From Candidatus Methanomethylicia archaeon (GTDB lineage: Archaea; Thermoproteota; Methanomethylicia; CALHIW01): DNA of 40,004 bases. Positions 8,592 to 39,621 of this stretch are shown in pieces. Below the pieces are notes generated by a model. It did not search any database. It was not told the origin of the DNA and saw nothing but the letters and a program-made list of their open reading frames with translations. Both the position numbers and the translations under genes were made by a program. Position 1 is the stretch's first letter, and each line of letters begins with the position of its first letter. The DNA is taken from assembly GCA_938030905.1 (NCBI GenBank), contig CALHIW010000075.1, positions 1-40,004 of the forward strand, in the 5' to 3' direction.

Positions 8592-8596
8592 CTGCC

Positions 8597-9025: not shown

Positions 9026-9124
9026 AATATCCTCAAATTTAAGTCATTATACCAACAGAATCCTAGTTCAATCTAGAAACCTTTATATAATTCCAATACG
9101 TATCATCTTGAACGAGGTTATTTT

Positions 9125-10318: not shown

Positions 10319-10327
10319 GTAGGTGTT

Positions 10328-11122: not shown

Positions 11123-11126
11123 AAAG

Positions 11127-12700: not shown

Positions 12701-13669
12701 ATGGTAGAACTGGAAATTGTTAAAAATATACTAAATGGTGACAAGAAAGCAATAGCCAAAGCAATATCAATTATAGAGAATCTTAAACCTGAAGCATGCA
12801 ATATACTTAAAGCATTAAGAGAATACTATGGAAAATCCCATATAGTAGGTGTAACCGGTCCTCTCGGAATCGGCAAAAGCACGCTCATAGATAAGTTGAT
12901 ATCAATATATAGAAAGTCAAGATGCAGTATTGCCGTTATAGCCATTGATCCTACAAGTCCCTTTACTGGTGGAGCCTTACTTGGTGATAGAGTTAGAATG
13001 CAGAAGCATAGTCTTGATGATGGAGTTTTTATTAGAAGTATGGCTACAAGGGGAGGATATGGTGGCATTGCAAGAGCATTAGGTCCAACTATTAGGATTC
13101 TTGAGGCAGCAGGTTTTAATACTATAATAATTGAAAGTGTGGGTGCTGGGCAGCTTGATGTGAATATAGCAAACTATTCACATACAGTCCTACTTGTACT
13201 TGGACCCATGCTTGGTGATGAAATTCAGTTTATGAAATCAGGTATAATGGAGGTTGCAGATATATATGTTATAAACAAATCAGATAATCCAAATGCTGAG
13301 TTAGTGAGCATGATGTTAGTAGAGCTTCTTAAGTATAGAAAACATGAAGGATGGATACCTCCAGTGGTGAAAACCATCGGCTTAACCGGAATGGGAGTGG
13401 AGGAGCTCTACCGCCAAATATTGATCCATAAGGATTTTCTCCATAAAACGGATACTTTTACAAAACTTAGTAGAAAACGCTTTATGTCTGAGCTCGCAGA
13501 TAATGTTCTATATGAGTTAAACACGATTATTAAAGAGAAGCTATATAGAGACTTAGAGATTGAAAAAATAATAGAATCGTATATGAGATTTGAAATAACA
13601 TCATATAATGCAGCTAAGCAAATTATTAGACTCATACCAAAAATACTTCATTCATCTATAAATCTTTAA
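12701..13669 (+). CDS. meaB: Methylmalonyl-CoA mutase-associated G-protein chaperone (MeaB/ArgK)
   Basis: P-loop GVTGPLGIGKSTLI, ..GGALLGDRVRM.., and NKSD (NKxD). Size is ~320 aa and the gene is close to both MCM subunits. Confidence 0.88.
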   Translation: MVELEIVKNILNGDKKAIAKAISIIENLKPEACNILKALREYYGKSHIVGVTGPLGIGKSTLIDKLISIYRKSRCSIAVIAIDPTSPFTGGALLGDRVRMQKHSLDDGVFIRSMATRGGYGGIARALGPTIRILEAAGFNTIIIESVGAGQLDVNIANYSHTVLLVLGPMLGDEIQFMKSGIMEVADIYVINKSDNPNAELVSMMLVELLKYRKHEGWIPPVVKTIGLTGMGVEELYRQILIHKDFLHKTDTFTKLSRKRFMSELADNVLYELNTIIKEKLYRDLEIEKIIESYMRFEITSYNAAKQIIRLIPKILHSSINL

Positions 13670-13739
13670 TATAATAGATGTCAATTTGCTACTGAATTAT
13701 AGTTAACTTAAAACTATATATTACCAGTAAAATACCTAA

Positions 13740-14110
13740 TGATGTCTAATCTACTCCGAATATTTTACGAGTCTATTCAGGATTGCATATTTAATTAAGG
13801 TTTTACGCCATCTCTTTTAGCCTTCTTAAAAGTGGAAAAGCCCCCTGTTTGTGGAGAGAGGGCGTTACGTAGTATTGTTATGGCGTCTACTTATACCTAT
13901 CAGTCTTCGCTGAGAGGCTTAAGTAGCTCCAACCTCTTTGCTAAGAGGTGTTAGATAACTGTCTTGTTCTGGATCCAGATCCAGACAGCTTCTTAGAAGG
14001 CTTATTTAACCCGAAAGAGCTTGTGGATTAGGTTTGGATTCATGGTGAAGCTTAGCGGTTTTGATAGCTGCGACTCCATGAAGGGTCTATCTTATGCCTA
14101 GAGGCTATGA
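13740..14110 (+). pseudogene. Remnant of a repeated element, possibly the 3' end of an IS200/IS605-type tnpB (orfB)
   Basis: No ORF >=60 aa. One frame reads ..VEKPPVCGERALRS..YTYQSSLRGLSSSNLFAKRC*, which is Zn-finger/RuvC-III-like but only weakly so. Nucleotide-level similarity to 35936-36039 (minus strand): TAGAAGG..TTTAA..GAA.GAGCT..GGTGAAGCYTAG..GACTCCATGRAG. Confidence 0.3.
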
Positions 14111-14821
14111 GTATCAGCATGGGTTCACAGTCTATTTGTTTCTGAGGAGATTTAAGTTGGAGAGTAATATTCACATAGATGAAATAGGCATAGTATCATG
14201 ACTGCGAGCTAGGCTAGACTTATGGTAATAAGTCTAAAGGAAGGTGACTGATGCATGGTAGAGGATTACTGATACAATTAAGGACTGCCTAAAATTCTTT
14301 AATGTTCACCTCCCATGTCAATTCTCGAGAGAGGCATATAATGAACTTCCTAAGCTTATACAAGCTCTACTACAACAGTCTCAGACACAGCTAGCTCTAA
14401 TAGGGCTTCTAATACCCATAGTGAATGAGATATAATGACTTGAGCTAAAAATCATCAAGGAGGTGTCCTATGCCTTTAACTAAACAAGTTCCCATTTAGG
14501 ATGTATGGCTATTCTTTATTTACAAATCTATCCGTACATCCCCATTATCAGAATTATTGTTTTATAGCTTCATCATTAGTCAAGAACTTTTATTTAATCT
14601 GTAATGGGCCTAATTCCTTAACAATGAACCTCATAAAATACTCTAATACTCTGATTAAAGCTTAAAAATAGGGGTATATTGATTGGAGCTTTTAACACTT
14701 TGTATAAGGACTTTTAAAGCTAAGCTGGATGAATAATTATGGGTATTGATTAATAAGTCTTTGGACAAGTAAATTTATGATATGTATGATCTACAGCTCT
14801 AAAGTATTATGTGGTTGTGAA

Positions 14822-15223
14822 TTACTCGGCTTTATGTATTATTTGCTTTATGAATTTAGCTATATCTGCTATAGGTGTTCCCGGGAGGAAAACCTCCTTT
14901 ACGCCATGATCTTTCAGAAATTTAATATCCTCAAGTGGAATGGTACCCCCAACTACTACTATAACATTATTAATTCCTCTTTCTTTTAGAATTCTTAAAA
15001 CCTCTGGCACTAAAACATCATGTGCTCCCGAGAGAATACTTAAACCTATTACATCAACATCCTCCTGAATAGCTGTTTCAACTATTTGTTCAGGTGTATT
15101 CCATAATCCAGCATATATAACTTCCATTCCTTCTTCTGCAAGTCCCCTAGCTACAACTTTAGCTCCTCTATCATGTCCATTAAGTCCCGGCTTGGCTATA
15201 AGTACCCTAACTTTCTTCTCCAT
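14822..15223 (-). CDS. Methylmalonyl-CoA mutase, small (B12-binding) subunit
   Basis: MEKKVRVLIAKPGLNGHDRGAKVVARGL.. carries the DxHxxG-type cobalamin-binding motif. I place the start at ATG 15223, not 15277. A GGTGG lies 6 nt upstream, and this start removes the overlap with the large-subunit stop at 15234. Confidence 0.88.
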   Translation of the reverse strand: MEKKVRVLIAKPGLNGHDRGAKVVARGLAEEGMEVIYAGLWNTPEQIVETAIQEDVDVIGLSILSGAHDVLVPEVLRILKERGINNVIVVVGGTIPLEDIKFLKDHGVKEVFLPGTPIADIAKFIKQIIHKAE

Positions 15224-15233
15224 GTTGTTCCAC

Positions 15234-16904
15234 CTAGAAGATTGCTGGTTCGCGATATTTTCCATAAACCTCTTCAAATACGTACATAACCTCTCCTAGT
15301 GTTGCTTTAGCTTTAACAGCTTCAAATACTACTGGGAATAAATGATCATTTTTCTCAGCTGTTTTTCTTAGTTTATCCAGTATATAATTGACTTTTTGCT
15401 GATCTCTATTTCTTCTAAATTCATTCAAAAGTTTTCTCCTCTCATCTTCAAGTTCCAGAGGTACTTTTAAAGGTTTAAAATCATACTTTAGCTCAGCTGG
15501 TTGAAGTATGTTAACCCCAACTTTTTCTATTTCCTTTTTCTCTATTTTTCTTCTATACTCATTTGCTGATTTCGCAATTTCAATAAGGAAGTAGCCATTC
15601 TTTATGCATTCTACAACCCCACCCATTCTTTCTATTCTTTCTATTTCACTCCATGCTCTTTCCTCCATTTCGTTTGTTAGCCACTCTATATAGTATGAGC
15701 CTCCTAATGGATCAATCACATCAGCTACACCGGTTTCATGTGCTATAATACGTTGGGTAAGAGTTGCTATTTTAGCTGCTTTCTCAGTAGGAACGCAAAT
15801 TGCTTCATCAAATGAGTTTGTATGAAGTGACTGTGTTCCTCCCAAAATTGCAGCCAGAGCCTGTATTGCTACCCTAACAATGTTAAGCTCTGGGTATTGG
15901 TATGTTAATGTATGGCCTGCTGTCTGTGTATGAAATCTAAGAATCCACGCTCTAGGTTTCACTACATTAAATCTTTCACGCATAATTTTAGCCCACATAC
16001 GTCTAGCAGCTCTAAACTTCGCTATTTCTTCAAAGAAGTTATCTCCACATGCAAAGAAAAAGGAAAATGTTGATGCAACATCATCGATATTTAGTCTGGC
16101 TTCTATGCACTTTTCAATATAGGTTATGCCATTCATTATTGTCCATGCAAGCTCTTGAATAGGTGTTGCCCCAGCCTCTCTTATATGATAGCCACTTACA
16201 CTGATTGGATGCCACCTAGGAGCATTCTTAACGCAGAATTTTATAATATCAATAACGATATTAATATGTGGCTCAGGAGGAAATCTGTATGATTTTTGAC
16301 CTATAAACTCCTTAAGCATATCGTTTTGTGTTGTACCACTAACATCAGTTAAAGAGTAGCCTTGAGCTTCAGCTAGAGCAAAATGACATGCAAGAACATA
16401 TATTGCCGGAGTGTTTATAGTGTAGTTTACAGTAACCTTACCAATAGGTATTCCACTCCAAAGATCCTCCATGTCTTTAATGCATGAGACGGAAACACCA
16501 CACCTACCAACCTCTCCTCTTGCTAATGGATCATCTGAATCATATCCTAAAAGTGTTGGGTAGTCGAAGGCACAGCTTAACCCTGTCTCACCATGGGCTA
16601 TTAGATCCTTCCATCTAGAATTTGTTTCTATTGGGCTTCCAAATCCAGAAAACATTCTAATGGTCCAGAGTTTACCGCGATACATGGTTTCATAAATACC
16701 TCTTGTAAATGGATAATGACCTGGATCCCCTAGGTCCTTTTCATAACTTAGATTTTTAATATCTTCAGGTTTATAGAACTGTTTAACTCCAATACCTGAA
16801 AGTGTCTCAAACCTATTTTTTCTTTCAAGCCCCTTCCTAGCTCTTTCTCTTTCTTTTCTCTCCAGCTCGATTTGTTTTAATACCATATTGTTTATGGAAC
16901 TCAT
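15234..16904 (-). CDS. Methylmalonyl-CoA mutase, large (catalytic) subunit
   Basis: 556 aa with ..YPFTRGIY..MYRGKLWTIRMFSGFG..RFHTQTAG..SLHTNSFDEA.., typical of archaeal split MCM alpha chains. Confidence 0.9.
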   Translation of the reverse strand: MSSINNMVLKQIELERKERERARKGLERKNRFETLSGIGVKQFYKPEDIKNLSYEKDLGDPGHYPFTRGIYETMYRGKLWTIRMFSGFGSPIETNSRWKDLIAHGETGLSCAFDYPTLLGYDSDDPLARGEVGRCGVSVSCIKDMEDLWSGIPIGKVTVNYTINTPAIYVLACHFALAEAQGYSLTDVSGTTQNDMLKEFIGQKSYRFPPEPHINIVIDIIKFCVKNAPRWHPISVSGYHIREAGATPIQELAWTIMNGITYIEKCIEARLNIDDVASTFSFFFACGDNFFEEIAKFRAARRMWAKIMRERFNVVKPRAWILRFHTQTAGHTLTYQYPELNIVRVAIQALAAILGGTQSLHTNSFDEAICVPTEKAAKIATLTQRIIAHETGVADVIDPLGGSYYIEWLTNEMEERAWSEIERIERMGGVVECIKNGYFLIEIAKSANEYRRKIEKKEIEKVGVNILQPAELKYDFKPLKVPLELEDERRKLLNEFRRNRDQQKVNYILDKLRKTAEKNDHLFPVVFEAVKAKATLGEVMYVFEEVYGKYREPAIF

Positions 16905-25600: not shown

Positions 25601-26110
25601 TATTTTGAAACTATCTCTATAAATAAACATTAATTATGGCTCTCCTGTAATTCTTCATTACAGGCCGTGTTTAGAGTAGGCTATTATGTGATTCATGGCT
25701 TTCACTCCCCTCTTTACTATCAGAGGATGCAGACCTCCACTATCAATAGTAAGGAAGCAAACATCAAAAGCTTATAGCTTAAAGTTGTATGTAGTTTAAC
25801 TTCCTACATTTAAAGACATGAGTATCCTGTTTTACATATCTACATCTTAAATATTCTTACAAAATCATAAATGGCCTTAGGATATTCGCAATAAGGAAAA
25901 TTACGAAAAGAATTTCTAGCTTTCCTAGCTACTAGATAAGTTGTGAATTTTTTATCTTCAAGAAAGCTTATCGGCTTAAATATAAGGTTAAGGAATACCT
26001 TGTAAATACACTTAAACATACTCAAAATATAGAGGGAATCGGCAATAATGCTATAAAGGATATTTTCTATCTATTATTTAGAAATGTTCTATTTATATGC
26101 TACTTAGAAA

Positions 26111-26147
26111 TTTTTATATATACCATTTCCTTCTAGGGTTTAGGTGG
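26111..26147 (+). promoter_or_regulatory. TATA-like box (TTTTTATATAT, 26111-26121) and Shine-Dalgarno-like AGGTGG (26142-26147) ahead of TTG 26154
   Basis: Both lie inside the 5' end of the long ORF 26097..27248. AGGTGG sits 6 nt before in-frame TTG 26154, which precedes the basic/hydrophobic signal-anchor KNIGKKAVIIIVVILIV. Confidence 0.35.
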
Positions 26148-26153
26148 CCTGTA

Positions 26154-27248
26154 TTGAAAAATATAGGTAAAAAAGCTGTTATAATTATAGTGGTTATTCT
26201 TATAGTTTCAATAGCAATATTTCTTACAACATTTAGTAAGCCAGTAGAGTCTAGACATATCACCATTAAATTTTCATATCAGCCCTCAGATCATCATTTA
26301 CCAGCCTTCATTATGTTAAGTAAAAAATGGATTGAGTTTGAAGCTGCTAAGCTTGGATACAGTATAGCTATTATTGAGAAGCCGTTCCCTAGTGGTCCAC
26401 CACAAGTTGAGAGGTTTCTAGCTGGTGATATCGATGTTATGTATGTCGGTGTAGCTCCAGTTATTAGTGCTGTAGCTAAGTATCTTGAGGCTAAGCAATC
26501 TGGCCGATCTATACCGCAGGCTATTGTAGTTGCTATAGCTCAATACCATGGCTCAGCGCTTATAGTAAATCCTGAATTAAACTATACTGGTCCAAAAAGC
26601 CTAATTGGAAAAGTAGTTGCAACATATCCTCCTGGTAGTATTCAGCATACAATCATGATTAACTGGCTTAGAAATAATGGATTAAAACCTGGAGATTTAG
26701 GTGATCCTAATGTAAATGTATATATTAAACCAGTTTCTGGTTCTCAGGAACAGATCGAATTATTATTAGCTAGAAAGGTAGATGCTATATTTGCCCCATC
26801 ACCAACTCCTGAAATTTGTGAAGTTAAAAATATTGGTAAAGTAGCTATTTCAAGCGGTGATATGGTACCAAATCATCCATGCTGTGTATTTACCATAAGT
26901 AGAGAGTTCTACGAGAAATATCCGGATTTAGCTAAACTACTAGTTAAGCTGCATGTAAAAGCTGAGAGATACATTGCTGAGAATACGGTTGAAGCTATTG
27001 AAATTGGTGCTTTAAAACTTTCTGAGCTTTGGGGCTATAATACAACTTTCACTAGATACGTATTGATGAAAACATTTACAGATAATAAAACAAAAATTAT
27101 ATTTAATCCAGATCCAGGTAAGGCTGAGGAGGGATTGGTTATGTTTATTAATGCAATGTATAATATAGGATCAATAAAGGTTAAACCGGAAGTTAATGAT
27201 TTGCTTAACAAATCAATATATGATGAAGCCGTTAAAGAATCCTTATAA
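26154..27248 (+). CDS. ABC transporter substrate-binding protein, NMT1/SsuA/TauA-like (NitT/TauT family)
   Basis: N-terminal membrane anchor followed by a periplasmic-binding-protein-like body. It is followed directly by a cognate permease and ATPase. Start uncertain (ATG 26097 or TTG 26154). Confidence 0.65.
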   Translation: MKNIGKKAVIIIVVILIVSIAIFLTTFSKPVESRHITIKFSYQPSDHHLPAFIMLSKKWIEFEAAKLGYSIAIIEKPFPSGPPQVERFLAGDIDVMYVGVAPVISAVAKYLEAKQSGRSIPQAIVVAIAQYHGSALIVNPELNYTGPKSLIGKVVATYPPGSIQHTIMINWLRNNGLKPGDLGDPNVNVYIKPVSGSQEQIELLLARKVDAIFAPSPTPEICEVKNIGKVAISSGDMVPNHPCCVFTISREFYEKYPDLAKLLVKLHVKAERYIAENTVEAIEIGALKLSELWGYNTTFTRYVLMKTFTDNKTKIIFNPDPGKAEEGLVMFINAMYNIGSIKVKPEVNDLLNKSIYDEAVKESL

Positions 27249-27277
27249 GTTAATTTCTATTTGATAGTTGACAATAT

Positions 27278-28033
27278 ATGAAGTTTAGAGATGGCTTAAC
27301 ATCGTTAACATCTATTACTGTATTTACTTTACTATGGGAACTGGCTTCAGAAATTCGAATTCTTCCTGCTACTTTACCTAGGCCTATTGATGTTGCTTTC
27401 TCCATTTATACATTAATAGATAAAATTCCAGTACATGCATATCATAGTATTAGCCATTTCATGGCCGGATTTGCTATGGCTTTAGTTATTGCTATTCCTA
27501 TTGGCGCGTTGTCTGGATGGTACCATTTAGTAAGGGCTTTTATTAAGCCTATAGTAGAGATTATTAGACCAATTCCGCCAATAGCATGGATTCCATTCGC
27601 CCTCATATCTTTTAGAAATGATTTTGAAGCATCCTCCCTCATAATATTTATAGGTTCCTTCTTTCCAATATTTACAAATACCTTTCTAGGATTTAGTAAT
27701 GTACCATTAGAGTACGTAGAAATAGCTAAGACGTTAGGAGCTAGTGATCTATATATTCTAGTTAAAGTTGCTCTTCCATCCTCTCTTCCATCTATACTAA
27801 GTGGTATTAGAACTGGTGTAGGTATTGGATGGATGTGCGTTGTTGCAGCTGAAATGTTTGGTCCTCCAGGTCTAGGTCTTCAAATAATGAATATGAGATA
27901 TTTGCATGATATATCTGCAGTAGCAGCATACATGTTAATTATCGGTGTAATAGGCTTTATTCTCGAGAGAATTGTTAGAATTGTTGAGATTAAAACTTTA
28001 AAGTGGCAAAAAGGCTTTATTAGACAATTTTAA
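27278..28033 (+). CDS. ABC transporter permease (NitT/TauT family, SsuC/TauC-like)
   Basis: 251 aa, ~6 TM, with an EAA-like loop ..YVEIAKTLGASDLYILVKVALPSSLPSILSGIRTG... Confidence 0.8.
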   Translation: MKFRDGLTSLTSITVFTLLWELASEIRILPATLPRPIDVAFSIYTLIDKIPVHAYHSISHFMAGFAMALVIAIPIGALSGWYHLVRAFIKPIVEIIRPIPPIAWIPFALISFRNDFEASSLIIFIGSFFPIFTNTFLGFSNVPLEYVEIAKTLGASDLYILVKVALPSSLPSILSGIRTGVGIGWMCVVAAEMFGPPGLGLQIMNMRYLHDISAVAAYMLIIGVIGFILERIVRIVEIKTLKWQKGFIRQF

Positions 28034-28789
28034 GTGGTTGTATTGGCTGAGCTAAATATTGTAGGTGTTAGCAAATCTTTCAATAATCTTAAAGTACTTA
28101 ATAACATATCATTCACCGCTAAACCTGGAAAGCTTATTGGGGTTTTAGGTCCTTCAGGCTGTGGTAAAACAACTCTTCTAAGAGTTTTAAGCGGTATCGA
28201 AAAGGCAGATTCCGGTAAAGTGCTTATTAATAATGAAGCACCCGACACATGTAAACATAAAATAGGCTATGTTCCTCAGAGCCTTACACTATATCCTTGG
28301 AGAACTGTTGAGGAAAACGTCCTATTTGGATTGGAAATTAGGGGTACTGATAAAAAATCCAGTAGTGAACTTGCTTATAATCTTCTTAAAGCTGTAGGAT
28401 TATATGAATTTAAAGATTATTATCCTCATGAAATATCTGGAGGTATGAAAGCTAGGGCATGTCTTGCAAGGGCTTTAGCTATAGATCCCGATGTCCTACT
28501 AATGGATGAGCCCTTTGCAAATATTGATACCCAAACAAGATACTACCTTCAGCTTGAAGTTCTTAAAATTCATCAGAAATATAAGAAAACCACTGTGTTT
28601 GTAAGTCATAATGTTGAGGAAATAGTTTTTTTAGCTGATACCGTAATTGTTTTAACAAGAAGGCCAGCAACGGTAAAGAAAGAACTAGATCTCTCAACAA
28701 TACTACCGAAGCCCAGAAGCATATTTAGTGAAGAATTTCTAAACATTAGGAAAAACCTTATCCAACTAATTCAGGAAGAATTTACATAA
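28034..28789 (+). CDS. ABC transporter ATP-binding protein (NitT/TauT family, SsuB/TauB-like)
   Basis: Walker A GPSGCGKTT, signature ISGGMKARACLARAL, Walker B LLMDEPF. A GTG start abuts the permease stop. Confidence 0.88.
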   Translation: MVVLAELNIVGVSKSFNNLKVLNNISFTAKPGKLIGVLGPSGCGKTTLLRVLSGIEKADSGKVLINNEAPDTCKHKIGYVPQSLTLYPWRTVEENVLFGLEIRGTDKKSSSELAYNLLKAVGLYEFKDYYPHEISGGMKARACLARALAIDPDVLLMDEPFANIDTQTRYYLQLEVLKIHQKYKKTTVFVSHNVEEIVFLADTVIVLTRRPATVKKELDLSTILPKPRSIFSEEFLNIRKNLIQLIQEEFT

Positions 28790-29024: not shown

Positions 29025-29369
29025 CTACCCATCTTCATCTTTAATGCTATTCAAATCTATTTTTCCAATACATGAATCACATTGAAAACCCTTCTTTTCT
29101 AAATCTACATTAAGCTCTTTTAGGCTCAAATATGCTGGATGAAAATCACCATTTTCAGCTAATGTTTTAAGAATTTCTATTCCATAGTTATAGTTTTCCT
29201 CTTGAATATATTTAAATGCCTCCATATATAAAACAATCTTTATTGACTCTCCCACCTCTTCATTCTCGACGTATCCAGGATCATAGTAGAGTTTACCAAG
29301 ACATTTATTACATAGCTTATATCTAAATAAGACCTTAAGCGCTGAATCAATAGTTGCCAACTCAGTCAT
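29025..29369 (-). CDS. 114-aa zinc-ribbon protein resembling only the N-terminal module of tRNA pseudouridine synthase Pus10
   Basis: ..YKLCNKCLGKLYYDPGYVENEEVGESIKIVLYME.....FQCDSCIGKIDL... A C-x2-C-L-G-(R/K) knuckle plus a distal CxxC is the pattern I recall for the Pus10 N-terminal Zn ribbon. No THUMP or catalytic part follows; 235 bp of ORF-free DNA comes next. Confidence 0.35.
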   Translation of the reverse strand: MTELATIDSALKVLFRYKLCNKCLGKLYYDPGYVENEEVGESIKIVLYMEAFKYIQEENYNYGIEILKTLAENGDFHPAYLSLKELNVDLEKKGFQCDSCIGKIDLNSIKDEDG

Positions 29370-29488: not shown

Positions 29489-31495
29489 ATGAGTGTTGAC
29501 TCAACTAATCTCGCTATGAATCTAACTTCCCCATCACCAACGTTAATGTATGCTTTAGCTATTGGGTCGTTGGTGATGTTTATTTATGGTTTCTACATTA
29601 GAGTTAAGGTTTACGGTATTACTGGATTTATTAATCAGTTTAAGTATTTTTCTAGAAATTATATTAAGTTTTTAAAGGATGTTCTTCTTCAAGGTAGAGT
29701 ATTAAATGATCCTTACATTGGTATTTCACATTTTCTAATTATGTATAACTTCCTAATACTTCTATTTGGAAAAGTTATTCTCGGCTTTCCCTTTCTATTT
29801 AATCTAAATCTTCCATTAGTGCTAATTTTTGGTAGCTTCTATTTTCAGTATTCAAGTTTAATTATGGACATCTCCGGTATTCTATTTATTGTAGGTGTTT
29901 GTCTAGCATTAATTAGAAGAATGGTGATTAGACCTTGGAAGCTTGAAACTGGAATGGAAGATTTTCTAGCTCTAGCAGCTTTACTATATCTAGGGCTATC
30001 AGGATTATTAACTGAAAGTTTTAAACTTAGATTTTCCCCATCATCTCCCACATGGTCTCCTATAGGCTCTATGATCTCACTACTTTTGACTGGTATACCA
30101 ATTAGTACTGCGGAAACTCTTCATATATTGTTTTGGTGGTCACACGTCCTTGTAGCATGCATTATTATAGCAGCTACTCCATACTCTAAGTTTTGGCATA
30201 TTTTAGCTGTACCAGGGAATATTGCTATTCAATCTGATAAGCCATTAGGCTCATTAGCAACTCCATTCCTACTATCTGAGTTGCTAAGCAATCCTGAGGT
30301 GATGGAGAAGGTTCGATTTGGAGTAGGTAGTGTTTGGGATCTTGATTGGCCTAGTAAGTTTATGATTGATTCCTGTACTAATTGTGGAAGATGTGATGAA
30401 GTTTGTCCTGCTGTAGCTTCAAAGAGAGCTTTAAAGCCTAGAGTGATAATTCAAAAACTTAAAAAACAACTCATAACTGGGCATATTGAAACGTTAACCG
30501 GCTCAATAATATCTGAAGATGAGATCTGGTCCTGTACAACATGTGGGAAATGCATGATCACATGTCCTGCATGGATAAGTCACGTAGACTTTATAGTTGA
30601 TCTTAGAAGATGGCTTATAGGAAATTCTAGACTTGATAAGAGGAAAAGCGATCTATTAAGTAATCTAGCTTATTCCTCAAATAGCTTAGGAATGCCGCAG
30701 TGGGATAGACAAGAATTAGCAGCTAAGTTAAATGTTAGAACTATTCATGAAAATTCTAACGTTGAATATTTACTTTGGATTGGATGTTTAGCCTCATATG
30801 ATAGTAGAGCTATTAAAATTTTGGAATCCCTCATAAAGATTCTTAAAAATGCTAATATAAGTTTTACAGTGCTTGGAGCTGAAGAGACATGCTGCGGTGA
30901 TCCTGCGAGGAGACTAGGGGAAGAAAGCAGATTTCAAGAAATAGCATTGAATAATATTGAACTATTTAAGAAGTATGATATCAAGAAAATACTAACTCTT
31001 TGTCCACATTGCTATAATACATTTAAAAATGAATATCAAAAACTTGGATTATTAAATACTGAGGTTTACCACTACTCTGAGCTTATTGAAAATCTTATAA
31101 GACGGGGGGCTGTCAGAATGAGCAAAACAGTAGCTACTGTGGTGGTACTTCATGATCCATGCTATTTATCACGATACAACAACATATACAATCAACCTAG
31201 AGCTATTTTAAAACAAGTTCCAGGATTAAAGGTTAAGGAGGCTGGGAATAGAGGGAAAAAGACATTTTGTTGTGGGGGTGGTGGTGCAAACTATTGGTAT
31301 GAAGTACCTGAAGAGAGAAGAATCAGCGTTATAAGACTTGAAGAGCTTACAGATCTAAATGTAGAAAGAGTGATTACTGAGTGTCCATTTTGCTTAGCAA
31401 TGCTTGAAGATGCTGCAAGAATTAAGGGTATTGATGAGAAAATATCTATATGTGATTTAACCGAAATTGTTTCTAAATCTTTAGATGGAGTGTGA
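29489..31495 (+). CDS. Fusion protein: NarI/DsrM/HdrE-like membrane domain + HdrD/DsrK-like Fe-S domain with two CCG motifs
   Basis: The N-terminal ~260 aa are multi-TM, with ..SHVLVACIIIAATPYSKFWHILAVPG... Then come CTNCGRCDEVCP and CTTCGKCMITCP, and two CCG-type units: GCLASYD..CCGDPARRLG..CPHC and DPCYLSR..FCCGGGGANYW..CPFC. Confidence 0.8.
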   Translation: MSVDSTNLAMNLTSPSPTLMYALAIGSLVMFIYGFYIRVKVYGITGFINQFKYFSRNYIKFLKDVLLQGRVLNDPYIGISHFLIMYNFLILLFGKVILGFPFLFNLNLPLVLIFGSFYFQYSSLIMDISGILFIVGVCLALIRRMVIRPWKLETGMEDFLALAALLYLGLSGLLTESFKLRFSPSSPTWSPIGSMISLLLTGIPISTAETLHILFWWSHVLVACIIIAATPYSKFWHILAVPGNIAIQSDKPLGSLATPFLLSELLSNPEVMEKVRFGVGSVWDLDWPSKFMIDSCTNCGRCDEVCPAVASKRALKPRVIIQKLKKQLITGHIETLTGSIISEDEIWSCTTCGKCMITCPAWISHVDFIVDLRRWLIGNSRLDKRKSDLLSNLAYSSNSLGMPQWDRQELAAKLNVRTIHENSNVEYLLWIGCLASYDSRAIKILESLIKILKNANISFTVLGAEETCCGDPARRLGEESRFQEIALNNIELFKKYDIKKILTLCPHCYNTFKNEYQKLGLLNTEVYHYSELIENLIRRGAVRMSKTVATVVVLHDPCYLSRYNNIYNQPRAILKQVPGLKVKEAGNRGKKTFCCGGGGANYWYEVPEERRISVIRLEELTDLNVERVITECPFCLAMLEDAARIKGIDEKISICDLTEIVSKSLDGV

Positions 31496-31528
31496 TTATG
31501 GTTACTAAATTATTATGGAGGTGGTTTT

Positions 31529-32047
31529 ATGAGTATTATTAAAGTACTTGCTGATTACCCACGTCTTATTATAGTTTTACTTCTAGGACTATGTATTATA
31601 CTAATACTAGCGTTAAGTATTCCACCATATGTTTCACCACAAGAACCCTACTGCTATGGATGTCATAGATACATATATTTAGGAAATCATAGTAAACTTG
31701 GCGATGAGCCAAAGGTATGCTCTTTCTGTCATATTGTTAGCTGGCCTATTGAACCAAATCATGGCGCACTACGTCTACTAAATGGTACAATAATTAAAGA
31801 TAAAACAATACAGTGTAGTCAATGTCATGCTAAAGAGCCTAATCTATGGAATGAAAGCGTTCACACTATAATTAATTACACATGGGAATCCTCATGGATA
31901 GTACGTCCATCACGGCTGGAAGATGTTACTCTTCAGCCACCATTAATTACTCCAAGTCCAGTTCCCTTAAAATATCAATATGTTATTCCATTATTGACAC
32001 TACTAGCTATTCTAGTAATTGTTTTAGCTAAACCTAGTTTAAGGTGA
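31529..32047 (+). CDS. Tri-haem c-type cytochrome, DsrJ/HmeE-like, with N-terminal signal anchor and C-terminal TM helix
   Basis: Three CXXCH motifs: CYGCH (31652-31666), CSFCH (31718-31732) and CSQCH (31814-31828). Hydrophobic N-terminus RLIIVLLLGLCIILILAL; C-terminus PSPVPLKYQYVIPLLTLLAILVIVLAKPSLR. GGAGGTGG lies 4 nt upstream of the ATG. Confidence 0.75.
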   Translation: MSIIKVLADYPRLIIVLLLGLCIILILALSIPPYVSPQEPYCYGCHRYIYLGNHSKLGDEPKVCSFCHIVSWPIEPNHGALRLLNGTIIKDKTIQCSQCHAKEPNLWNESVHTIINYTWESSWIVRPSRLEDVTLQPPLITPSPVPLKYQYVIPLLTLLAILVIVLAKPSLR

Positions 32048-32051
32048 TGTA

Positions 32052-32831
32052 ATGGGTAGTGTAAGTAGAAGAGATTTTCTAAAGATACTATGTATAGCCC
32101 CTATTCTTTTATTTACATCAAAAATCCTCACAGAATCCATTAAACTTAGTAGTGAAGTTAGTAGTACGGAATCTAACAACAATATTTTCCCTAAGTATGC
32201 CATGGTAATAGATCTATCTAAATGTACTGGATGTAGGATATGTATGTATGCATGCATTAAGGAGAACAATATAGGTAGAAATTCTGGGTTCAGCTATATT
32301 AAGGTCTATGCTTTACCCCGTGGTGTACTCGATATAGATATTGGTGATGAATGTTATAGCGAAACTGAAGAGGATAAATGGTATATACCTGTTCAGTGTA
32401 TGCAATGTGATGATCCACCATGTGTTAAAGTATGTCCTGTAGGTGCAACCTTTAAACTTGAAACCGGTGTTGTTTGGGTAGATCATAGGAGATGTATTGG
32501 ATGTAGATTATGCATGGCTGCCTGTCCATATAATGCCAGGCGTTTTAACTGGATCTGGCCTCAAGTACCTAAAGATGAACTGAATCCCAATGCTCTCCCA
32601 CCTAGACCTGCTGGAGTTGTAGAGAAATGTATTTTCTGCCCTCATCGAGTTACACGTGGATTAAAACCTAGATGTGTTATCGAATGTCCAACAGGTGCCA
32701 GATATTTTGGTGATTTAAACAATCCTGAAAGTGAGGTATCGAAGCTCATAAGGGAAAACGTATCCTTTAGGCTCAGAGAGGATCTTGGATATAAGCCCCG
32801 TATTTACTATATTAATAGGGGATATAAATGA
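32052..32831 (+). CDS. Tat-exported 4x[4Fe-4S] ferredoxin-like subunit (DsrO/HmeA/NrfC/PsrB type)
   Basis: Twin-arginine signal MGSVSRRDFLKIL... Cys clusters CTGCRICMYAC, CMQCDDPPCVKVCP, CIGCRLCMAACP and CIFCPHR..CVIECP. Confidence 0.85.
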   Translation: MGSVSRRDFLKILCIAPILLFTSKILTESIKLSSEVSSTESNNNIFPKYAMVIDLSKCTGCRICMYACIKENNIGRNSGFSYIKVYALPRGVLDIDIGDECYSETEEDKWYIPVQCMQCDDPPCVKVCPVGATFKLETGVVWVDHRRCIGCRLCMAACPYNARRFNWIWPQVPKDELNPNALPPRPAGVVEKCIFCPHRVTRGLKPRCVIECPTGARYFGDLNNPESEVSKLIRENVSFRLREDLGYKPRIYYINRGYK

Positions 32832-34321
32832 ATTATGACATGAATGAGCTTAATAAAGTATTAAAACCTCTTACATATACATCAAAGAAATTTTACATAT
32901 TCACCTCAGTATTAATGGTAACCATTACATGGTTTTTATATGCTTGGTATATTCAGTTAGAGTATGGACTTGGAGTTACAGGTATGAGAGATTATGTTAT
33001 TTATGGATTATATATAGCTAACTTCGTTTTTCTAATAGGCGTTAGCCATGCTGGTATAGCTATTTCTGCTGGTGTTAGATTATTAAGAGTTATAGTTCTT
33101 AAGCCTATTGTTAGAATGGCTGAACTACTAACAGCTGTTAGTCTAGTTATAGCTTTTATGAATGTACTTTTTGATTTAGGTAGGCCTGAAAGAGTTCTTA
33201 ATATGTTTGCTTATGGAAGATGGCTTTCAGTTTTAGTATGGGATATGACATCAATAACAACATATTTAGTAGCAACAATAATATATCTTTATATAACGAT
33301 GAGAGAGGATATAGCGCTATGTGCTAAGTATCTTCTAAAGAGATCATGGCTATATAAAATAGCCTCATTAAAATATAAGTATGATATATTATCTAGGAAA
33401 GCTCATGAGAAGGCTGCATGGTGGCTTGCTCTAGTAATACTTCCAATAATGGTAAGTGTTCATACTGTTGTATCCTGGGTTTTTGGCTTAATGGTTAGGC
33501 CTGGATGGTATAATCCGTTTTTTGGGCCGTATTTTGTAACTGGGGCTATTGCTTCAGGTGTTGCAACAATTATAATGGTTGCTGCTGTTTTTAGAAAGAT
33601 TTTTCAATGGGAATTCCTTATCACTCCCCAGATATTTAGAATTTTATCCAATTTTCTTAGAGTTGTTTTAGCGATCTACGTATACTTCATGATATGTGAG
33701 CAGGTTACAATAAGATATTTAGGTCCAGCACGTGAAAAGGAGATTTCAAATATTCTCTTTTTTGGAGACTATGCAACTTTATACTGGTTTGTAGTGATCA
33801 TAACATTAGTTATCCCATTTATTATGCTTTCAACTTATACATTTATACCTAAATTTTTCAGCATAAAACTTATTGTTTTAGCTGCTACTCTGATCAATAT
33901 TGGATTATGGATTAAGAGAATTATAATAGTTATTCCTGTACTTTTAAGACCAGAACTACCGTATCCACTAGGTATATATATCCCAACATGGGTTGAGTTC
34001 TCACTTATAATTGGAGGATATGCTATAGCAGCATTAATTTATACCATATTTGTTAAGCTATTTCCAATAGTTGAATTAGCCATTATAGGCCCTCATGAAG
34101 CCTCAGAAAATTCAGAACCACAACTAAGGGTTAAAAAGGATCTTCCAGTAGCTTTAGCAATCATTGGTGTTTTAGCATTAATCTCTGGAATGTTGGGAAT
34201 GTCCTATGTAAAGTATCCATATTCATACCCCGAAGTACCCTGGGCACCAGCAGCATGGCTTCTGGGAATAATAACTTTACTGTCAATTCCACTAGCATAT
34301 GTACTATTTTTTAAGGAGTAA
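32828..34321 (+). CDS. NrfD/PsrC/DsrP-family integral membrane quinone-interacting subunit
   Basis: 497 aa, hydrophobic throughout (>=10 predicted helices by eye). Its ATGA overlap with the preceding Fe-S subunit is the standard NrfC-NrfD pairing. Confidence 0.75.
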   Translation: MNYDMNELNKVLKPLTYTSKKFYIFTSVLMVTITWFLYAWYIQLEYGLGVTGMRDYVIYGLYIANFVFLIGVSHAGIAISAGVRLLRVIVLKPIVRMAELLTAVSLVIAFMNVLFDLGRPERVLNMFAYGRWLSVLVWDMTSITTYLVATIIYLYITMREDIALCAKYLLKRSWLYKIASLKYKYDILSRKAHEKAAWWLALVILPIMVSVHTVVSWVFGLMVRPGWYNPFFGPYFVTGAIASGVATIIMVAAVFRKIFQWEFLITPQIFRILSNFLRVVLAIYVYFMICEQVTIRYLGPAREKEISNILFFGDYATLYWFVVIITLVIPFIMLSTYTFIPKFFSIKLIVLAATLINIGLWIKRIIIVIPVLLRPELPYPLGIYIPTWVEFSLIIGGYAIAALIYTIFVKLFPIVELAIIGPHEASENSEPQLRVKKDLPVALAIIGVLALISGMLGMSYVKYPYSYPEVPWAPAAWLLGIITLLSIPLAYVLFFKE

Positions 34322-34977: not shown

Positions 34978-35718
34978 ATGACTTCTCAATACTTGGAAAT
35001 AGTTACGTTTAAAATTCTTCCATTAATTACTTATGTAGTTTTTACATTGGGTGTAATTCTTAAACTATCTTCATGGATTAAGCGTACATATAGTGTTTCC
35101 GCTAGGAATAATGTACTACCAATTAAAAAGCTAACATTATCTATTATTCTACAAACTTTAATATCAACTATTTCAAGATATGTATTACAGTTTAAGCTAT
35201 TAAGGGGCTCACATAAGCTTTGGGTAGTATCCTGGATAACTTTTCATATACCTGTACTTTTTATAATATTCGGGCATCTCCGCGGCTTTGGAGTGTGGTC
35301 CTTAGAATGGTTTACATGGATAGCACCTAAAGAATTTCTCAAATACACTCTTCCGATGATACTTGGAGTTGTAGTCATGGTAGCATTAATAACCCTAGTA
35401 ATGTATAGGCTGATTTACTTAAGATCAGTTTCAAACATAAGTAATTATATTGTTCTTTTCCTATTAATTTTAGTGGTTGGAAGTGGGAATTTAATGAGGT
35501 TTTCCCTATTTACTATTGAGGAAAAAGTGATTGTAATACCTCCAGGATTTACATTAAGATTAGAACATACACCTAATATTAACCTACTAATACTTCATTC
35601 AATACTTGTACAGATTCTAGTAATGTATGTTCCATTTAGTCCACTATTACATATATATGTATCACCATTTTTAATGATAGTAAATGAAGTAAAAAGAATT
35701 AGAATAAGTGAAAGCTAA
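34978..35718 (+). CDS. NarI/DsrM/HdrE-type di-haem cytochrome b (stand-alone)
   Basis: 246 aa, ~5 TM. His90/His100 (FHIPVLFIIFGH, spacing 10) and a His pair spaced 18 (LILHSILVQILVMYVPFSPLLH) reproduce the H56/H66 and H187/H205 spacing of E. coli NarI. C-terminal PFS.L.H motif. Confidence 0.7.
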   Translation: MTSQYLEIVTFKILPLITYVVFTLGVILKLSSWIKRTYSVSARNNVLPIKKLTLSIILQTLISTISRYVLQFKLLRGSHKLWVVSWITFHIPVLFIIFGHLRGFGVWSLEWFTWIAPKEFLKYTLPMILGVVVMVALITLVMYRLIYLRSVSNISNYIVLFLLILVVGSGNLMRFSLFTIEEKVIVIPPGFTLRLEHTPNINLLILHSILVQILVMYVPFSPLLHIYVSPFLMIVNEVKRIRISES

Positions 35719-35719
35719 T

Positions 35720-36563
35720 ACTTATGGTATTGTCTTATAAATCTATTATGCTAATATGATTTATCAGTTGATCTAATATCAAATTAAGCATTGTTTCTTG
35801 AGCTTTGAAATTATGAACATATATTTTAAGAAGCCTCTCAACAACCAGTTTTGAGGCCATATACTTCTGAGTCTGCATCTAAACTGTTCTTCACAGCTCC
35901 ATGACTCTCTCGACTCTATTCCTGTACCCATAAGTTCTCCATGGAGTCCACGGTTACATATCTCTAATCCTGAGGAACTGATTACTAGGCTTCACCCCAG
36001 CTTGAGTATTGAATTAGCTCTTCCTTAAACACCCTTCTATGTTCTTGGGAATATCATGTTTACAGGATTAGCCTGAGCTCATAAATCTTGGAACATCTCC
36101 TGAACATGGATTGTCATAGCATTCCCTAGTGTTATCTTACTACCAGAACGATATTGAAAGGCAATAGCACGATCCTGTAGAGCTTAACTTAGACTTCTTC
36201 AATCTCAGTCTTATAGAATACGCTCAGATAGGTCAATCACGTAACCCCCTGAGAATCATAGAGAATTAGCACTCTGCAACTATTTAACTAGATGAGACAC
36301 ATACCCTCATCCATTCAACTCATAGCTCTAAATCTATTGTAGTTAGCAATATGCTTAGATGAAGGGACAACATTCAGACCACTTATGTCGAAGTAGATTC
36401 CTCAAGACATAAAGAATCACCATCTCCTGGCTTGATGCTTGTGGAAGCATCTTCTTGTCCAGTTAAAGTCCTTGGAAAGACATATCACAGCCTCAATAGC
36501 CTCCAGAGCCTTCACCTCTAAACCCAAGATAAATCCTCCAATTACAACGTCTAGCTTTCTCAT
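35720..36563 (-). pseudogene. Decayed element, possibly the C-terminal half of an IS200/IS605-type tnpB plus its 3' flank
   Basis: No ORF >=60 aa. Minus-strand reading from ATG 36563 gives MRKLDVVIGGFILGLEVKAL.. (RuvC-I-like?), ..VLILYDSQGVT.. (RuvC-II-like?), and ..RCSKIYEL.. / ..SCKHDIPKNIEG.. (Zn-finger/RuvC-III-like?). The repeat core follows at 35985-35996 and 35936-35948. Confidence 0.3.
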
Positions 36564-36621
36564 AGAGTAAGTTTAGGTGCAACAACTAGAAAGGTTATAG
36601 GTAACCCAATATTTATCTCCT

Positions 36622-37125: not shown

Positions 37126-37868
37126 AATCAGTATATTTTAAATTAAAATATTATATAGTTGTTACTACAGTATCTATAACCTTGATTATAAATATTCTTT
37201 TAACGATTGAAAACTTGCTAACTATCTACAAGCTCCATTATCTAATTCTTAATCTTACAATGCTTTACTCTTATCTAGCTATAATCAACAATAAGAAACA
37301 GTCATTAGCATTTCTTACTGTATTAAGGATAAATATTCAGAACTCAGATGATCATAAACATCCTTTCTAAGAATGAAGAAACATCCTAAGTAAATGTTAA
37401 TATGATTACATTATGGTATGATAACAACTCTATATATACTAAGCATATTAACTTTAATCATGCCTAGTTTGATACAATTATATAAACTCTAAGATGAGAA
37501 TTTCGGTAGAGTCAAGATGAATACCATTTTCGGCCAAGCTTATGAAGCATTAATCATCGCTGAGGAAAATTAAAGTTCTGAAGTATTGTAAGTCCAAGTT
37601 TATTGTGGATAAGATTCCTGGCTTAAGGAAGCCTTAATAGAGTTTAACCATTAACATCAAACCTTAGACTAAGAAGCATATAAATCATTCTTCCTATTCC
37701 TAAACAGAGAACAAACACATTCAACAAGATAATCACCAACATAAAGCATTAAAAATACATATGTTTAAACAAATACTATAAAGCTCCTAATGAGCTAAAG
37801 AGTAATAATATACTGGACAATAATAATAGCCATGCTTTAGCGGACTTAGCTTCCCTAAATATGTATAA

Positions 37869-38288: not shown

Positions 38289-38573
38289 ATGATGCTACTA
38301 GCAATAATGAATTGGGAATGGATTATTGTGATTGTGTTGATAGTGGTTATATTCCTGTGGGGTCCTCAAAAGCTTCCGGAGCTTGCTAAATCGATAGGGC
38401 TAGCGAAGAAAGAATTTGAGAAGGCTTCTAAAGGCATCGAGGATGAAATTAGAAAATCCTCAACAACAGATGAAAGAATAATAGAAATTGCTAAGAATCT
38501 CGGTATAAAAACTGAAGGTAAAACACGTGAGCAAATAATACAAGAAATACTTGAGAAAACACGTGCTAGATGA
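38289..38573 (+). CDS. tatA: Twin-arginine translocase TatA/E
   Basis: ..WEWIIVIVLIVVIFLWGPQKLPELAKSIGLAKKEFEKASKG.. shows a TM helix, the G-P-x-K-L-P hinge and an amphipathic helix. The true start may be the internal ATG (MNWEW..). Confidence 0.85.
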   Translation: MMLLAIMNWEWIIVIVLIVVIFLWGPQKLPELAKSIGLAKKEFEKASKGIEDEIRKSSTTDERIIEIAKNLGIKTEGKTREQIIQEILEKTRAR

Positions 38574-38715: not shown

Positions 38716-39621
38716 TTGTCTAATGAGATAGCTTTTTCAGAGCATATTGAGGAGCTTAAGGCTAGATTAAAAGTCATAATTTACTGTTTACTAATATCAT
38801 CCATTGCGATGATGGTTATTCCAGCAAACACCGACTTTACAAGAAATCCTTTAAATTTCTATGAACCCCTAATAGGCTTAATTCTTAGAAGTATTAGATC
38901 ATATATTTTAGAATCCCCATTTCTATTCTATTCTTTAAACTCAACTCGATTAGAACTTATAGCTGTAGAGATTACAGCCCCTCTTGAACTTTATGTTTTA
39001 ACATCAATATTATTTGGTGTGCTCGTATCCATGCCTGTTATAGCATATGAAGTCTACAAGTTTATAGATCCTGCTCTATATCCACATGAGAGAAAAATGA
39101 TATATCCATTCATAACTTCATTTACGATACTGTTCATTGTTGGTGGGCTTTTCGGCTTTTTCATTTTATGTCCATTCTTAATATGGGCTATGCTTCCATT
39201 CTATCATATAGTTGGTGCTCAAGCAGTCATTTCTGTAATTGATTTCTACAATGTAATATTCTTTACAGTTTTAATGACTGGTCTATCATTTACAATACCT
39301 GTTATCTTCGTTATTTTTGTAAAACTTGGCTTTATAGATACTACTATTATAACTAAGAGAAGACGATATATATATGCAGCATTATTTATACTTACAGCAA
39401 TTATAACGCCTAATGGTGGTCCATTAGCTGATTTAGCACTATTTATACCTATGATTATACTGCTTGAAGTAGCAGTTCTAGTAGCTAAGAAATATGAAGG
39501 TATTAGAGAGAGAAGATTTACATTATTTCCATCAGTAAAATATGTAAAATGTAACTATTGTGGAGCTGAAATATCTGAAGGCTCTGTTTTCTGTAGTCGA
39601 TGTGGTCGTGCTACTAAATAG
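38716..39621 (+). CDS. tatC: Twin-arginine translocase TatC with a C-terminal zinc-ribbon extension
   Basis: N-terminal ..FSEHIEELKARLKV.. (the HL.ELR motif region), six hydrophobic helices, then CNYCGAEISEGSVFCSRCG at 39550-39603. TTG start assumed. Confidence 0.85.
   Translation: MSNEIAFSEHIEELKARLKVIIYCLLISSIAMMVIPANTDFTRNPLNFYEPLIGLILRSIRSYILESPFLFYSLNSTRLELIAVEITAPLELYVLTSILFGVLVSMPVIAYEVYKFIDPALYPHERKMIYPFITSFTILFIVGGLFGFFILCPFLIWAMLPFYHIVGAQAVISVIDFYNVIFFTVLMTGLSFTIPVIFVIFVKLGFIDTTIITKRRRYIYAALFILTAIITPNGGPLADLALFIPMIILLEVAVLVAKKYEGIRERRFTLFPSVKYVKCNYCGAEISEGSVFCSRCGRATK

Follow-up and report, generated by a model that had tools for sequence, protein, structure and literature searches.

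The DNA analysed here, referred to as the window, is a 40,004-nt stretch from a Candidatus Methanomethylicia archaeon (GCA_938030905.1, contig CALHIW010000075.1), and our subject is an operon of four co-directional genes within it that encodes a predicted membrane redox system. Gene 1 (29489-31495, +) is a 668-aa open frame in the list of open reading frames (ORFs), while the start used in its relatives lies at 29516 and gives 659 aa. Gene 2, or J (31529-32047, +, 172 aa), encodes a putative extracytoplasmic three-haem c-type cytochrome; gene 3, or O (32052-32831, +, 259 aa), a ferredoxin of the NrfC/PsrB/DsrO type with four [4Fe-4S] motifs, predicted to be exported by the twin-arginine translocation (Tat) pathway; and gene 4, or P (32828-34321, +, 497 aa), an NrfD-family membrane subunit. 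Reading along the sequence, the genes are spaced by 33 nt, 4 nt and then a 4-nt ATGA overlap, and Shine-Dalgarno-like motifs stand before genes 2-4 (GGAGGTG, AGGTGAT and AGGGGAT respectively). Gene 1 is preceded by no such motif; a TTTATA element lies at ~29481, ~30 nt 5' of the ATG at 29516, where gene callers place the start in all relatives. This arrangement suggests that the first gene is leaderless and that the three after it are coupled in translation. An initial annotation of this DNA had described the same four genes and spacings, with which the ORFs and the sequence agree, and its domain calls (NarI with ferredoxin and two CCG motifs; three CXXCH motifs; a Tat-signal four-cluster protein; NrfD) are borne out by Pfam and by motif reading.

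Three domains make up the single chain of gene 1, as indicated by Pfam (Nitrate_red_gam, a Fer4 dicluster and two CCG matches), by hydropathy and by an AlphaFold2 model (pLDDT 87.6): a NarI-like haem-b domain of five helices, a domain like HdrC with two cubane motifs, and one like HdrB with two CCG motifs. Both CCG motifs contain the complete set of five cysteines (C433/468/469/505/508 and C558/594/595/632/635). The best solved relative in a sequence search of the PDB is chain A of 9OJN (5.8e-75, 256 bits), the Mycobacterium smegmatis EtfD, an electron wire that leads from electron-transfer flavoprotein (ETF) through four Fe-S clusters and haem b to menaquinone (PMC13083937). The predicted structure points to the same protein, since Foldseek returned 9OJN as the top match over the whole length of the model (TMq 0.82, E 1e-35), the next matches being to single domains, namely LutA, HdrB and NarI. 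This fused architecture of ~640-710 aa is widespread in archaea and bacteria, with 994 homologues at E<=1e-20, and most of the 120 homologues listed cover more than 90% of the query.

The closest functional comparison is offered by the ETF:(methyl)menaquinone oxidoreductase (EMO) of Syntrophus aciditrophicus, which is 33% identical to gene 1 across both domains (375 bits). Reduction of this enzyme by an acyl-CoA dehydrogenase together with EtfAB has been shown, and it has been solved with and without ETF (bioRxiv 10.64898/2026.08.18.745454). Its haem ligands H87, H233 and H251 are conserved throughout EMO-like membrane domains, and its E187 holds the twin-haem cation (bioRxiv 10.64898/2026.08.18.745454). 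In gene 1, H81, H219 and H237 align with the three ligands and are invariant in a 16-sequence alignment, and E176 aligns with the twin-haem glutamate. Among other homologues, one from Vulcanisaeta moutnovskia, among the nearest outside the genus (42% identity, 499 bits), lies directly 3' of etfB-etfA, and another (43% identity) stands among thiolases and methylmalonyl-CoA mutase. At 24 of 80 further genome loci, etfAB lies within 3 kb of the gene 1 homologue. We identify gene 1, by its sequence relationships, as a full-length homologue of the EMO/EtfD family, a closeness measured against DsrK and DsrM. It shares with EMO and EtfD the single-chain architecture, the three conserved histidines and the twin-haem glutamate, and differs in heading an operon with c-type cytochrome, NrfC-like and NrfD-like genes and in having no adjacent etfBA. 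Both of the enzymes characterised so far have a changed site for the distal cluster (PMC13083937; bioRxiv 10.64898/2026.08.18.745454), but gene 1 keeps all five cysteines in both CCG motifs, and it lacks the long disordered C-terminal tail of the M. smegmatis protein.

This assignment departs from the initial annotation, which had taken gene 1 for a DsrM fused to a DsrK and the whole operon for the equivalent of bacterial dsrMKJOP or of the Archaeoglobus Hme complex. The likeness to these systems is one of part order: a haem-b membrane protein, a CCG protein, an anchored three-haem cytochrome c, a Tat-exported Fe-S protein and an NrfD protein. In the present operon, however, the M and K parts are fused and belong to the EMO clade. 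DsrK, HmcF and TmcB carry one CCG motif and a conserved cysteine in a (G/T)ECGH motif (PMC10861901), in contrast to gene 1 with its two complete CCG motifs and no ECGH. As a reference we used a genuine dsr cluster, L099 (GCA_053530615.1), which comprises dsrEFH, dsrM, dsrK, dsrJ, dsrO, dsrP and dsrC and whose DsrK contains GECGH. Gene 1 is only 19% identical to this DsrK (45 bits), scores 38.4 bits with the NCBIfam DsrK model against a cutoff of 400, and gives neither a BLASTP match at E<=10 to the reference DsrM nor a match to the NCBIfam DsrM model. DsrM is a cytochrome b on a chain of its own whose two haems each have His/His ligation, which takes four histidines, whereas gene 1 has the three-histidine EMO pattern. 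In the reference cluster itself, DsrK (6065-7693) and DsrP (9001-10485) both end in a near-identical Cys-rich tail of ~35 aa, C.LCGA.FSSM..CCEHAEKEHKIARASCDMCC, as if one metal-binding module had been duplicated onto both subunits.

The intact cysteine motifs bring in another reading, in which gene 1 is a fused HdrDE-like membrane reductase of heterodisulfide or of another low-molecular-weight disulfide that would reduce its cytoplasmic substrate with electrons drawn from the membrane pool, while J, O and P would feed this pool from an external donor. The full five-cysteine set in both CCG motifs is that of HdrB and HdrD, and EMO and HdrDE are structurally near-identical (PMC13083937; bioRxiv 10.64898/2026.08.18.745454). 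The candidate lineage considered below, Culexarchaeia, is moreover reported to carry several Hdr systems working on an unknown disulfide (PMC9723716). EMO and HdrDE nevertheless form distinct clades (bioRxiv 10.64898/2026.08.18.745454), the nearest gene 1 relatives adjoin etf or beta-oxidation genes at the contexts checked, and the related Syntrophus enzyme has demonstrated ETF-dependent reduction (bioRxiv 10.64898/2026.08.18.745454). We therefore consider a disulfide reductase quite unlikely.

Gene 2 carries its haem motifs CYGCH, CSFCH and CSQCH at residues 42, 64 and 96, and its hydropathy indicates a signal/anchor helix at the N-terminus and a transmembrane anchor at the C-terminus; it matches no Pfam family. 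Because three further histidines (54, 78 and 112) occupy invariant alignment columns, the sequence suggests that gene 2 carries three bis-His haems. Outside the membrane helix the protein has no methionine and no free cysteine, and the His/Met and His/Cys haem ligation by which DsrJ is characterised (PMC10861901) is therefore unavailable to it. Indeed, gene 2 gave no match to the NCBIfam cytoc_DsrJ model even at E<=10 and no significant BLASTP match to the reference DsrJ (E 1.1); we regard the two cytochromes as unrelated. A sequence search of the PDB returned nothing significant, and a structure prediction from a 5-sequence alignment reached a pLDDT of 45.6, too low for a fold search. A profile search of 1.84 billion representatives recovered six remote relatives, which are C-terminally anchored tetrahaem modules, some of them tandemly repeated, and gene 2 is 32% identical to the tetrahaem protein that partners the closest NrfD relative of P (locus L014). 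By these matches we place gene 2 in a family of membrane-anchored tetrahaem modules, with its fourth haem motif (CxxCHxPHQP) lost. Some of the remote relatives repeat the tetrahaem module in tandem with a single C-terminal membrane anchor, P0247 and P0249 having two modules each and P0250 (963 aa) 11 matched stretches; these tandem proteins are possibly extracytoplasmic haem wires.

Genes 3 and 4 resemble their Dsr counterparts more closely. Gene 3 begins with the Tat signal MGSVSRRDFLK, has four cysteine clusters and matches Pfam Fer4_11; among NCBIfam models it scores highest with DsrO (213.6 bits, cutoff 200), followed by QrcC (182.8) and ArrB (150), and its sequence matches in the PDB are ArrB and PsrB. 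Gene 4 matches Pfam NrfD at 1.6e-30 and is predicted from hydropathy to have a core of ~10 helices followed by a C-terminal extension of ~75 aa with two more hydrophobic segments. Its best named NCBIfam match is DsrP, at 120.5 bits against a cutoff of 350, and among solved structures it is matched best by ActC from alternative complex III (6F0K_C, 4e-36), whose R395 aligns with R364 of gene 4; this arginine is regarded as family-wide in NrfD proteins (PMC13059093). Gene 3 is 40% identical to the reference DsrO. Gene 4 is 58% identical to the NrfD protein of the L014 trio of cytochrome, O and P, 52% and 49% to archaeal molybdoenzyme anchors (L012 and L013), 46% to the true DsrP of the reference cluster and 40% to a further molybdoenzyme anchor (L097). 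The Dsr scores do not separate Dsr from other NrfCD modules, because subunits of molybdoenzymes score alike: the DsrO model gives 148-208 bits on Fe-S subunits of molybdopterin-bearing clusters (L013, L019 and L057, the last two at 198-208), and the DsrP model gives 118-135 bits on NrfD subunits that follow a molybdopterin gene (L012 and L013). O and P are thus, as far as sequence comparison goes, generic members of the NrfC and NrfD families. The Tat signal in O and the signal and anchor helices in J would place both proteins outside the membrane.

These results bear directly on whether the operon is a genuine Dsr/Hme-type complex, in which the CCG domain would act on a DsrC-like trisulfide or disulfide, exchange electrons with the quinone pool and be served by dsrAB and dsrC elsewhere in the genome, with J, O and P in the role they have in DsrMKJOP. 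The parts list and gene order are alike, O passes the DsrO cutoff with DsrP the best named match for P, the two proteins are 40% and 46% identical to genuine Dsr subunits, and a sulfonate-type ATP-binding cassette (ABC) transporter lies syntenic upstream. However, the DsrO and DsrP scores are non-discriminating, gene 1 falls far short of DsrK, shows no match to the reference DsrM and has a three-histidine rather than four-histidine membrane domain, and J offers no spare cysteine or methionine for DsrJ-like ligation. No dsr gene was found in the window or in the flanks of relatives: domains of DsrAB, DsrC, Apr, Sat and molybdopterin proteins are absent from 28 non-overlapping window ORFs of >=90 aa scanned with Pfam (five ORFs overlapping larger genes were set aside), as the initial annotation had reported, and dsrAB, dsrC and dsrEFH are absent nearby and from the 10-kb flanks of relatives. 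A dsr partner situated just outside the window, which would have made the operon ordinary, is likewise missing from those flanks, including ~3.5 kb past tatC in the related locus L005. We do not class the operon as DsrMKJOP, because three defining features of that complex are absent, and we consider a Dsr/Hme-type function very unlikely. The equivalence first proposed holds for the parts list and the gene order, with Dsr models the best NCBIfam matches for O and P, and fails for the homology of gene 1 and J; the scores of O (above the DsrO cutoff) and P (below the DsrP cutoff) do not discriminate.

The transmembrane Hmc and Tmc complexes of sulfate reducers (HmcABCDEF and TmcABCD) offer a looser parallel, since they join a periplasmic multihaem cytochrome c to a cytochrome b of the NarI kind and a CCG protein resembling HdrD, Hmc also containing NrfC- and NrfD-like subunits, and thereby share the modular logic of outside-to-inside wiring. 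The scores are weak, however (TmcB 56, HmcF 40 and HmcB 95 bits, all far below cutoffs), HmcF and TmcB have the one-CCG/ECGH signature, and the cytochromes differ. In profile searches of the Dsr, Hmc, Tmc and Qrc families, which the initial annotation had named as its own check, O passed the non-discriminating DsrO cutoff, DsrK, DsrP, HmcF, HmcB and TmcB remained under their cutoffs and DsrJ gave no match. O and P are ordinary members of the group formed by the NrfCD/PsrBC modules of molybdopterin oxidoreductases, alternative complex III (ActBC) and Qrc (QrcCD), with a Tat-exported four-cluster ferredoxin followed by an NrfD protein with the conserved arginine. The present operon differs from these modules in having no molybdopterin subunit, a small three-haem cytochrome in place of the catalytic subunit, and the extra two-helix C-terminal extension of P.

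Membership in this group also allows the electrons to run in the other direction, or the two halves of the operon to work separately. In this case J, O and P would form a Qrc-like unit that passes to the quinone pool the electrons of an outside donor (H2 or formate, for instance, by way of periplasmic enzymes), and EMO would act separately or backwards, supplying ETF-dependent reductions, so that the operon would be shared just through a common quinone pool. NrfCD modules run either way and QrcCD reduces menaquinone (PMC13059093); among the models for O, QrcC ranks second at 182.8 bits; and the parts do occur apart, since the L014 trio, which holds the closest relative of P, stands alone without EMO, and in most genomes among the loci surveyed EMO occurs without O or P. 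Independence of the modules is nevertheless hard to reconcile with their translational coupling through the 4-nt gap and ATGA overlap and with their strict co-conservation, which point to stoichiometric co-production. Against reversed flow, no hydrogenase or formate dehydrogenase lies nearby, and quinol-driven reduction of ETF would be energetically unusual. Either version seems to us quite improbable.

Associations comparable to the one described here are found in unrelated bacteria. In a bacterial metagenome-assembled genome (MAG), the EMO gene of L057 (3447-10999) stands directly before genes for a multihaem cytochrome, for NrfC and NrfD, for a Tat-molybdopterin protein and for a NapC/NrfH-like cytochrome. 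A group of Eubacteriales MAGs contains this gene set in another order, and EMO is likewise linked to multihaem c-NrfC-NrfD modules at L019 (3488-11944), L031, L040 and L054. These loci suggest that ETF dehydrogenases are recurrently associated with periplasmic respiratory modules and hint independently that the pairing in our operon is functional; counting the present lineage, L057 and the L019 group, there are at least three candidates for separate origins of such a linkage. Each module of our operon is known in itself; the combination of EMO with a cytochrome c-NrfCD unit in one operon is described in no paper that we found, and our literature search returned no paper containing both 'DsrMKJOP' and 'Methanomethylicia'.

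Conservation indicates that the operon is maintained. Among 5.8 billion clustered proteins, only four are close relatives of the cytochrome (80-88% identity), on contigs from Jinze (China), Yellowstone and other metagenomes, and we took the genomic context of the operon from these relatives, since an exact look-up of gene 1 returned no recorded contig. The neighbourhood of gene 1, J, O, P and a downstream NarI-like gene is repeated at eight loci (L001-L008), which form two groups by sequence and whose proteins share 80-93% identity with those of the window; at least three related genomes have the cluster in synteny. The shared run comprises an SsuA-type ABC transporter, a 114-aa ORF, gene 1, J, O, P, the 246-aa NarI-like gene, DUF123, tatA and tatC. 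Compared with two relatives, all five membrane-complex genes show ratios of nonsynonymous to synonymous substitution (dN/dS) of 0.08-0.22 at a dS of 0.29-0.65 and are thus under purifying selection. Since the four operon genes combine Shine-Dalgarno-like motifs and a 4-nt overlap with kept synteny and dN/dS values of 0.08-0.20, these features indicate one functional unit.

A plausible donor for this unit is encoded in the same window. The initial annotation had stated that no catalytic partner is present, and in doing so overlooked etfB (1468-2340, +; Pfam ETF 1.5e-33, NCBIfam EtfB-type matches) and etfA (2345-3289, +; Pfam ETF and ETF_alpha, also NCBIfam), together with a beta-oxidation gene set at 7413-12338. 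By Pfam, this set consists of a thiolase with its OB-fold partner, a 3-hydroxyacyl-CoA dehydrogenase, an enoyl-CoA hydratase and an acyl-CoA dehydrogenase (11127-12338, -; also NCBIfam). Adjoining the beta-oxidation genes, at 12701-16904, are genes for the large and B12-binding subunits of methylmalonyl-CoA mutase and a MeaB GTPase; the closest gene 1 relative outside the genus (locus L009) adjoins the same mutase genes. In the related locus L005, an etf gene lies ~7.5 kb upstream. The missing partner is probably ETF.

While the analysis establishes the families of the proteins, their cofactor motifs and topology signals, the structure and conservation of the operon and the existence of etfBA and beta-oxidation genes in the window, we infer an ETF donor, a direction of electron flow, an involvement of quinone and a physical association of the four proteins. 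The operon would join an EMO/EtfD-type ETF dehydrogenase to a cytochrome c-NrfC-NrfD unit and carry electrons from ETF to an outward-facing three-haem cytochrome, a proposal to which we give an even chance. Acyl-CoA dehydrogenases of beta-oxidation would charge the ETF encoded by etfBA, and reduced ETF would dock on the cytoplasmic CCG domain of gene 1. Electrons would then pass through two non-cubane and two cubane Fe-S clusters to the haem or haems b of the five-helix membrane domain, and genes 2-4 would link the membrane quinone site to redox partners beyond the cell membrane. This link could take the form of a quinone pool reduced by EMO and re-oxidised by NrfD, NrfC and the cytochrome, or all four proteins could be assembled into a single supercomplex of the Dsr/Hmc kind. 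The second arrangement, in which reduced ETF would deliver electrons directly to the outward-facing cytochrome c, with no free quinone pool involved or else with quinone cycling and proton translocation as in Dsr complexes, we consider unlikely. In either case an acceptor outside the cytoplasm would receive the electrons of beta-oxidation, and charge might be separated across the membrane in the process.

Several observations weigh against this transfer of ETF electrons to the cytochrome. The proposed quinone-proximal residues of the Syntrophus enzyme, E22 and H109, are conserved neither in gene 1 nor in most family members, and the HdrD-like retention of all five cysteines in both CCG motifs is compatible with thiol/disulfide chemistry. 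The etfBA genes lie 26 kb from the operon and are not adjacent to it, no acceptor or terminal reductase is encoded nearby, and co-transcription is no proof that the four proteins associate physically. The only metabolic reconstruction of the candidate lineage, Culexarchaeia, proposes bifurcation by EtfAB-Acad instead and is silent on cytochromes, quinones and respiration (PMC9723716); in that paper and two of its supplements, cytochrome c, NrfD, menaquinone, DsrC, ccmF and polysulfide all go unmentioned (PMC9723716).

The link to Culexarchaeia is itself only a possibility. The nearest MAGs are labelled Candidatus Methanomethylicia archaeon by NCBI, so that 'crenarchaeon', the term used by the initial annotation, was roughly right. 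In favour of Culexarchaeia, the GC content of the Jinze relative (31.9%) is close to that of JZ-Bin-30 (32.4%), and metagenome 3300005860 gave Culexarchaeia MAGs; against it, the Yellowstone relative has a GC content of 34% compared with 39% for the published YNP-WB MAGs. The reverse gyrase of the window, also noted in the initial annotation, scores 1324 bits against a cutoff of 472; its ORF was scanned with NCBIfam alone.

Downstream of the operon, a NarI/DsrM-like gene of 246 aa (34978-35718, +; Pfam Nitrate_red_gam 24 bits, NCBIfam DsrM 30.8 bits) lies 656 nt 3' of gene 4 with its own TATA-like element. It encodes a stand-alone protein with five helices and the canonical four-histidine dihaem pattern (H90/H100 and H207/H225, with spacings of 10 and 18), is 80-85% identical in all relatives and has a dN/dS of 0.17-0.22; no Fe-S or catalytic partner lies beside it. 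This gene may encode a fifth component of the complex or may serve something else. Further downstream are tatA (38289-38573, +; Pfam TatA_B_E) and tatC (38716-39621, +; Pfam TatC), whose positions are kept in relatives. Their presence had been pointed out before, and they would allow subunit O, with its Tat signal, to be exported. The window contains an extra ~880 bp (35726-36607) between the NarI-like gene and DUF123, whereas in L001, L003 and L005 the two genes are 13-17 nt apart. Self-BLAST found no second copy of this segment in the window or in the relatives' loci, and it holds no ORF of more than 50 aa. A 150-aa ORF (15114-15566 in L001) is cut to its first 17 codons in the window, at 37517-37567.

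On the upstream side, three ABC transporter genes of the SsuA/NitT/TauT (aliphatic-sulfonate/nitrate/taurine) family (26097-28789, +) are syntenic in all relatives. These genes lie directly 5' of the operon, and their best NCBIfam matches are SaoX, SaoP and SaoA, all below cutoff. A remnant of a PrpR_N-like gene with an in-frame stop lies at 25863-26013; the gene is intact (178 aa) at 3584-4120 of L001. The 114-aa ORF (29025-29369, -) shows a weak likeness to the N-terminal zinc-ribbon part of the tRNA pseudouridine synthase Pus10. It had been taken for a truncated gene, but has identical length in all relatives and has thus undergone no recent truncation. Nor did we find evidence of transposase behind the transposon debris previously suggested around the operon: a repeat scan of 28.7-40 kb gave short repeats at chance level, and the differences from the relatives are just local indels. 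Scans of the window for tRNA genes and with Rfam gave no matches.

A Dsr-like parts list, even with a pass of the DsrO cutoff, does not identify sulfur metabolism, and automated annotation could miscall loci of this kind as dsrMKJOP. What J, O and P do in true Dsr complexes is still regarded as an enigma (PMC10861901), and a J-O-P-like module attached to an entry module of another kind on the cytoplasmic side offers a helpful comparison. Re-oxidation of ETF is the bottleneck of anaerobic fatty-acid and amino-acid oxidation, and structures of its membrane acceptor, EMO/EtfD, became available only in 2025-2026. If ETF is indeed the donor, one transcript would specify the onward route of ETF electrons after EMO, in an uncultured hot-spring archaeon without any proposed respiratory chain. 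Should the four proteins form a single supercomplex, the Dsr/Hmc architecture would have been assembled independently around an ETF dehydrogenase, and a hyperthermophilic archaeal lineage so far described as a cytochrome-less fermenter and hydrogen cycler would gain a respiratory outlet for the electrons of beta-oxidation.

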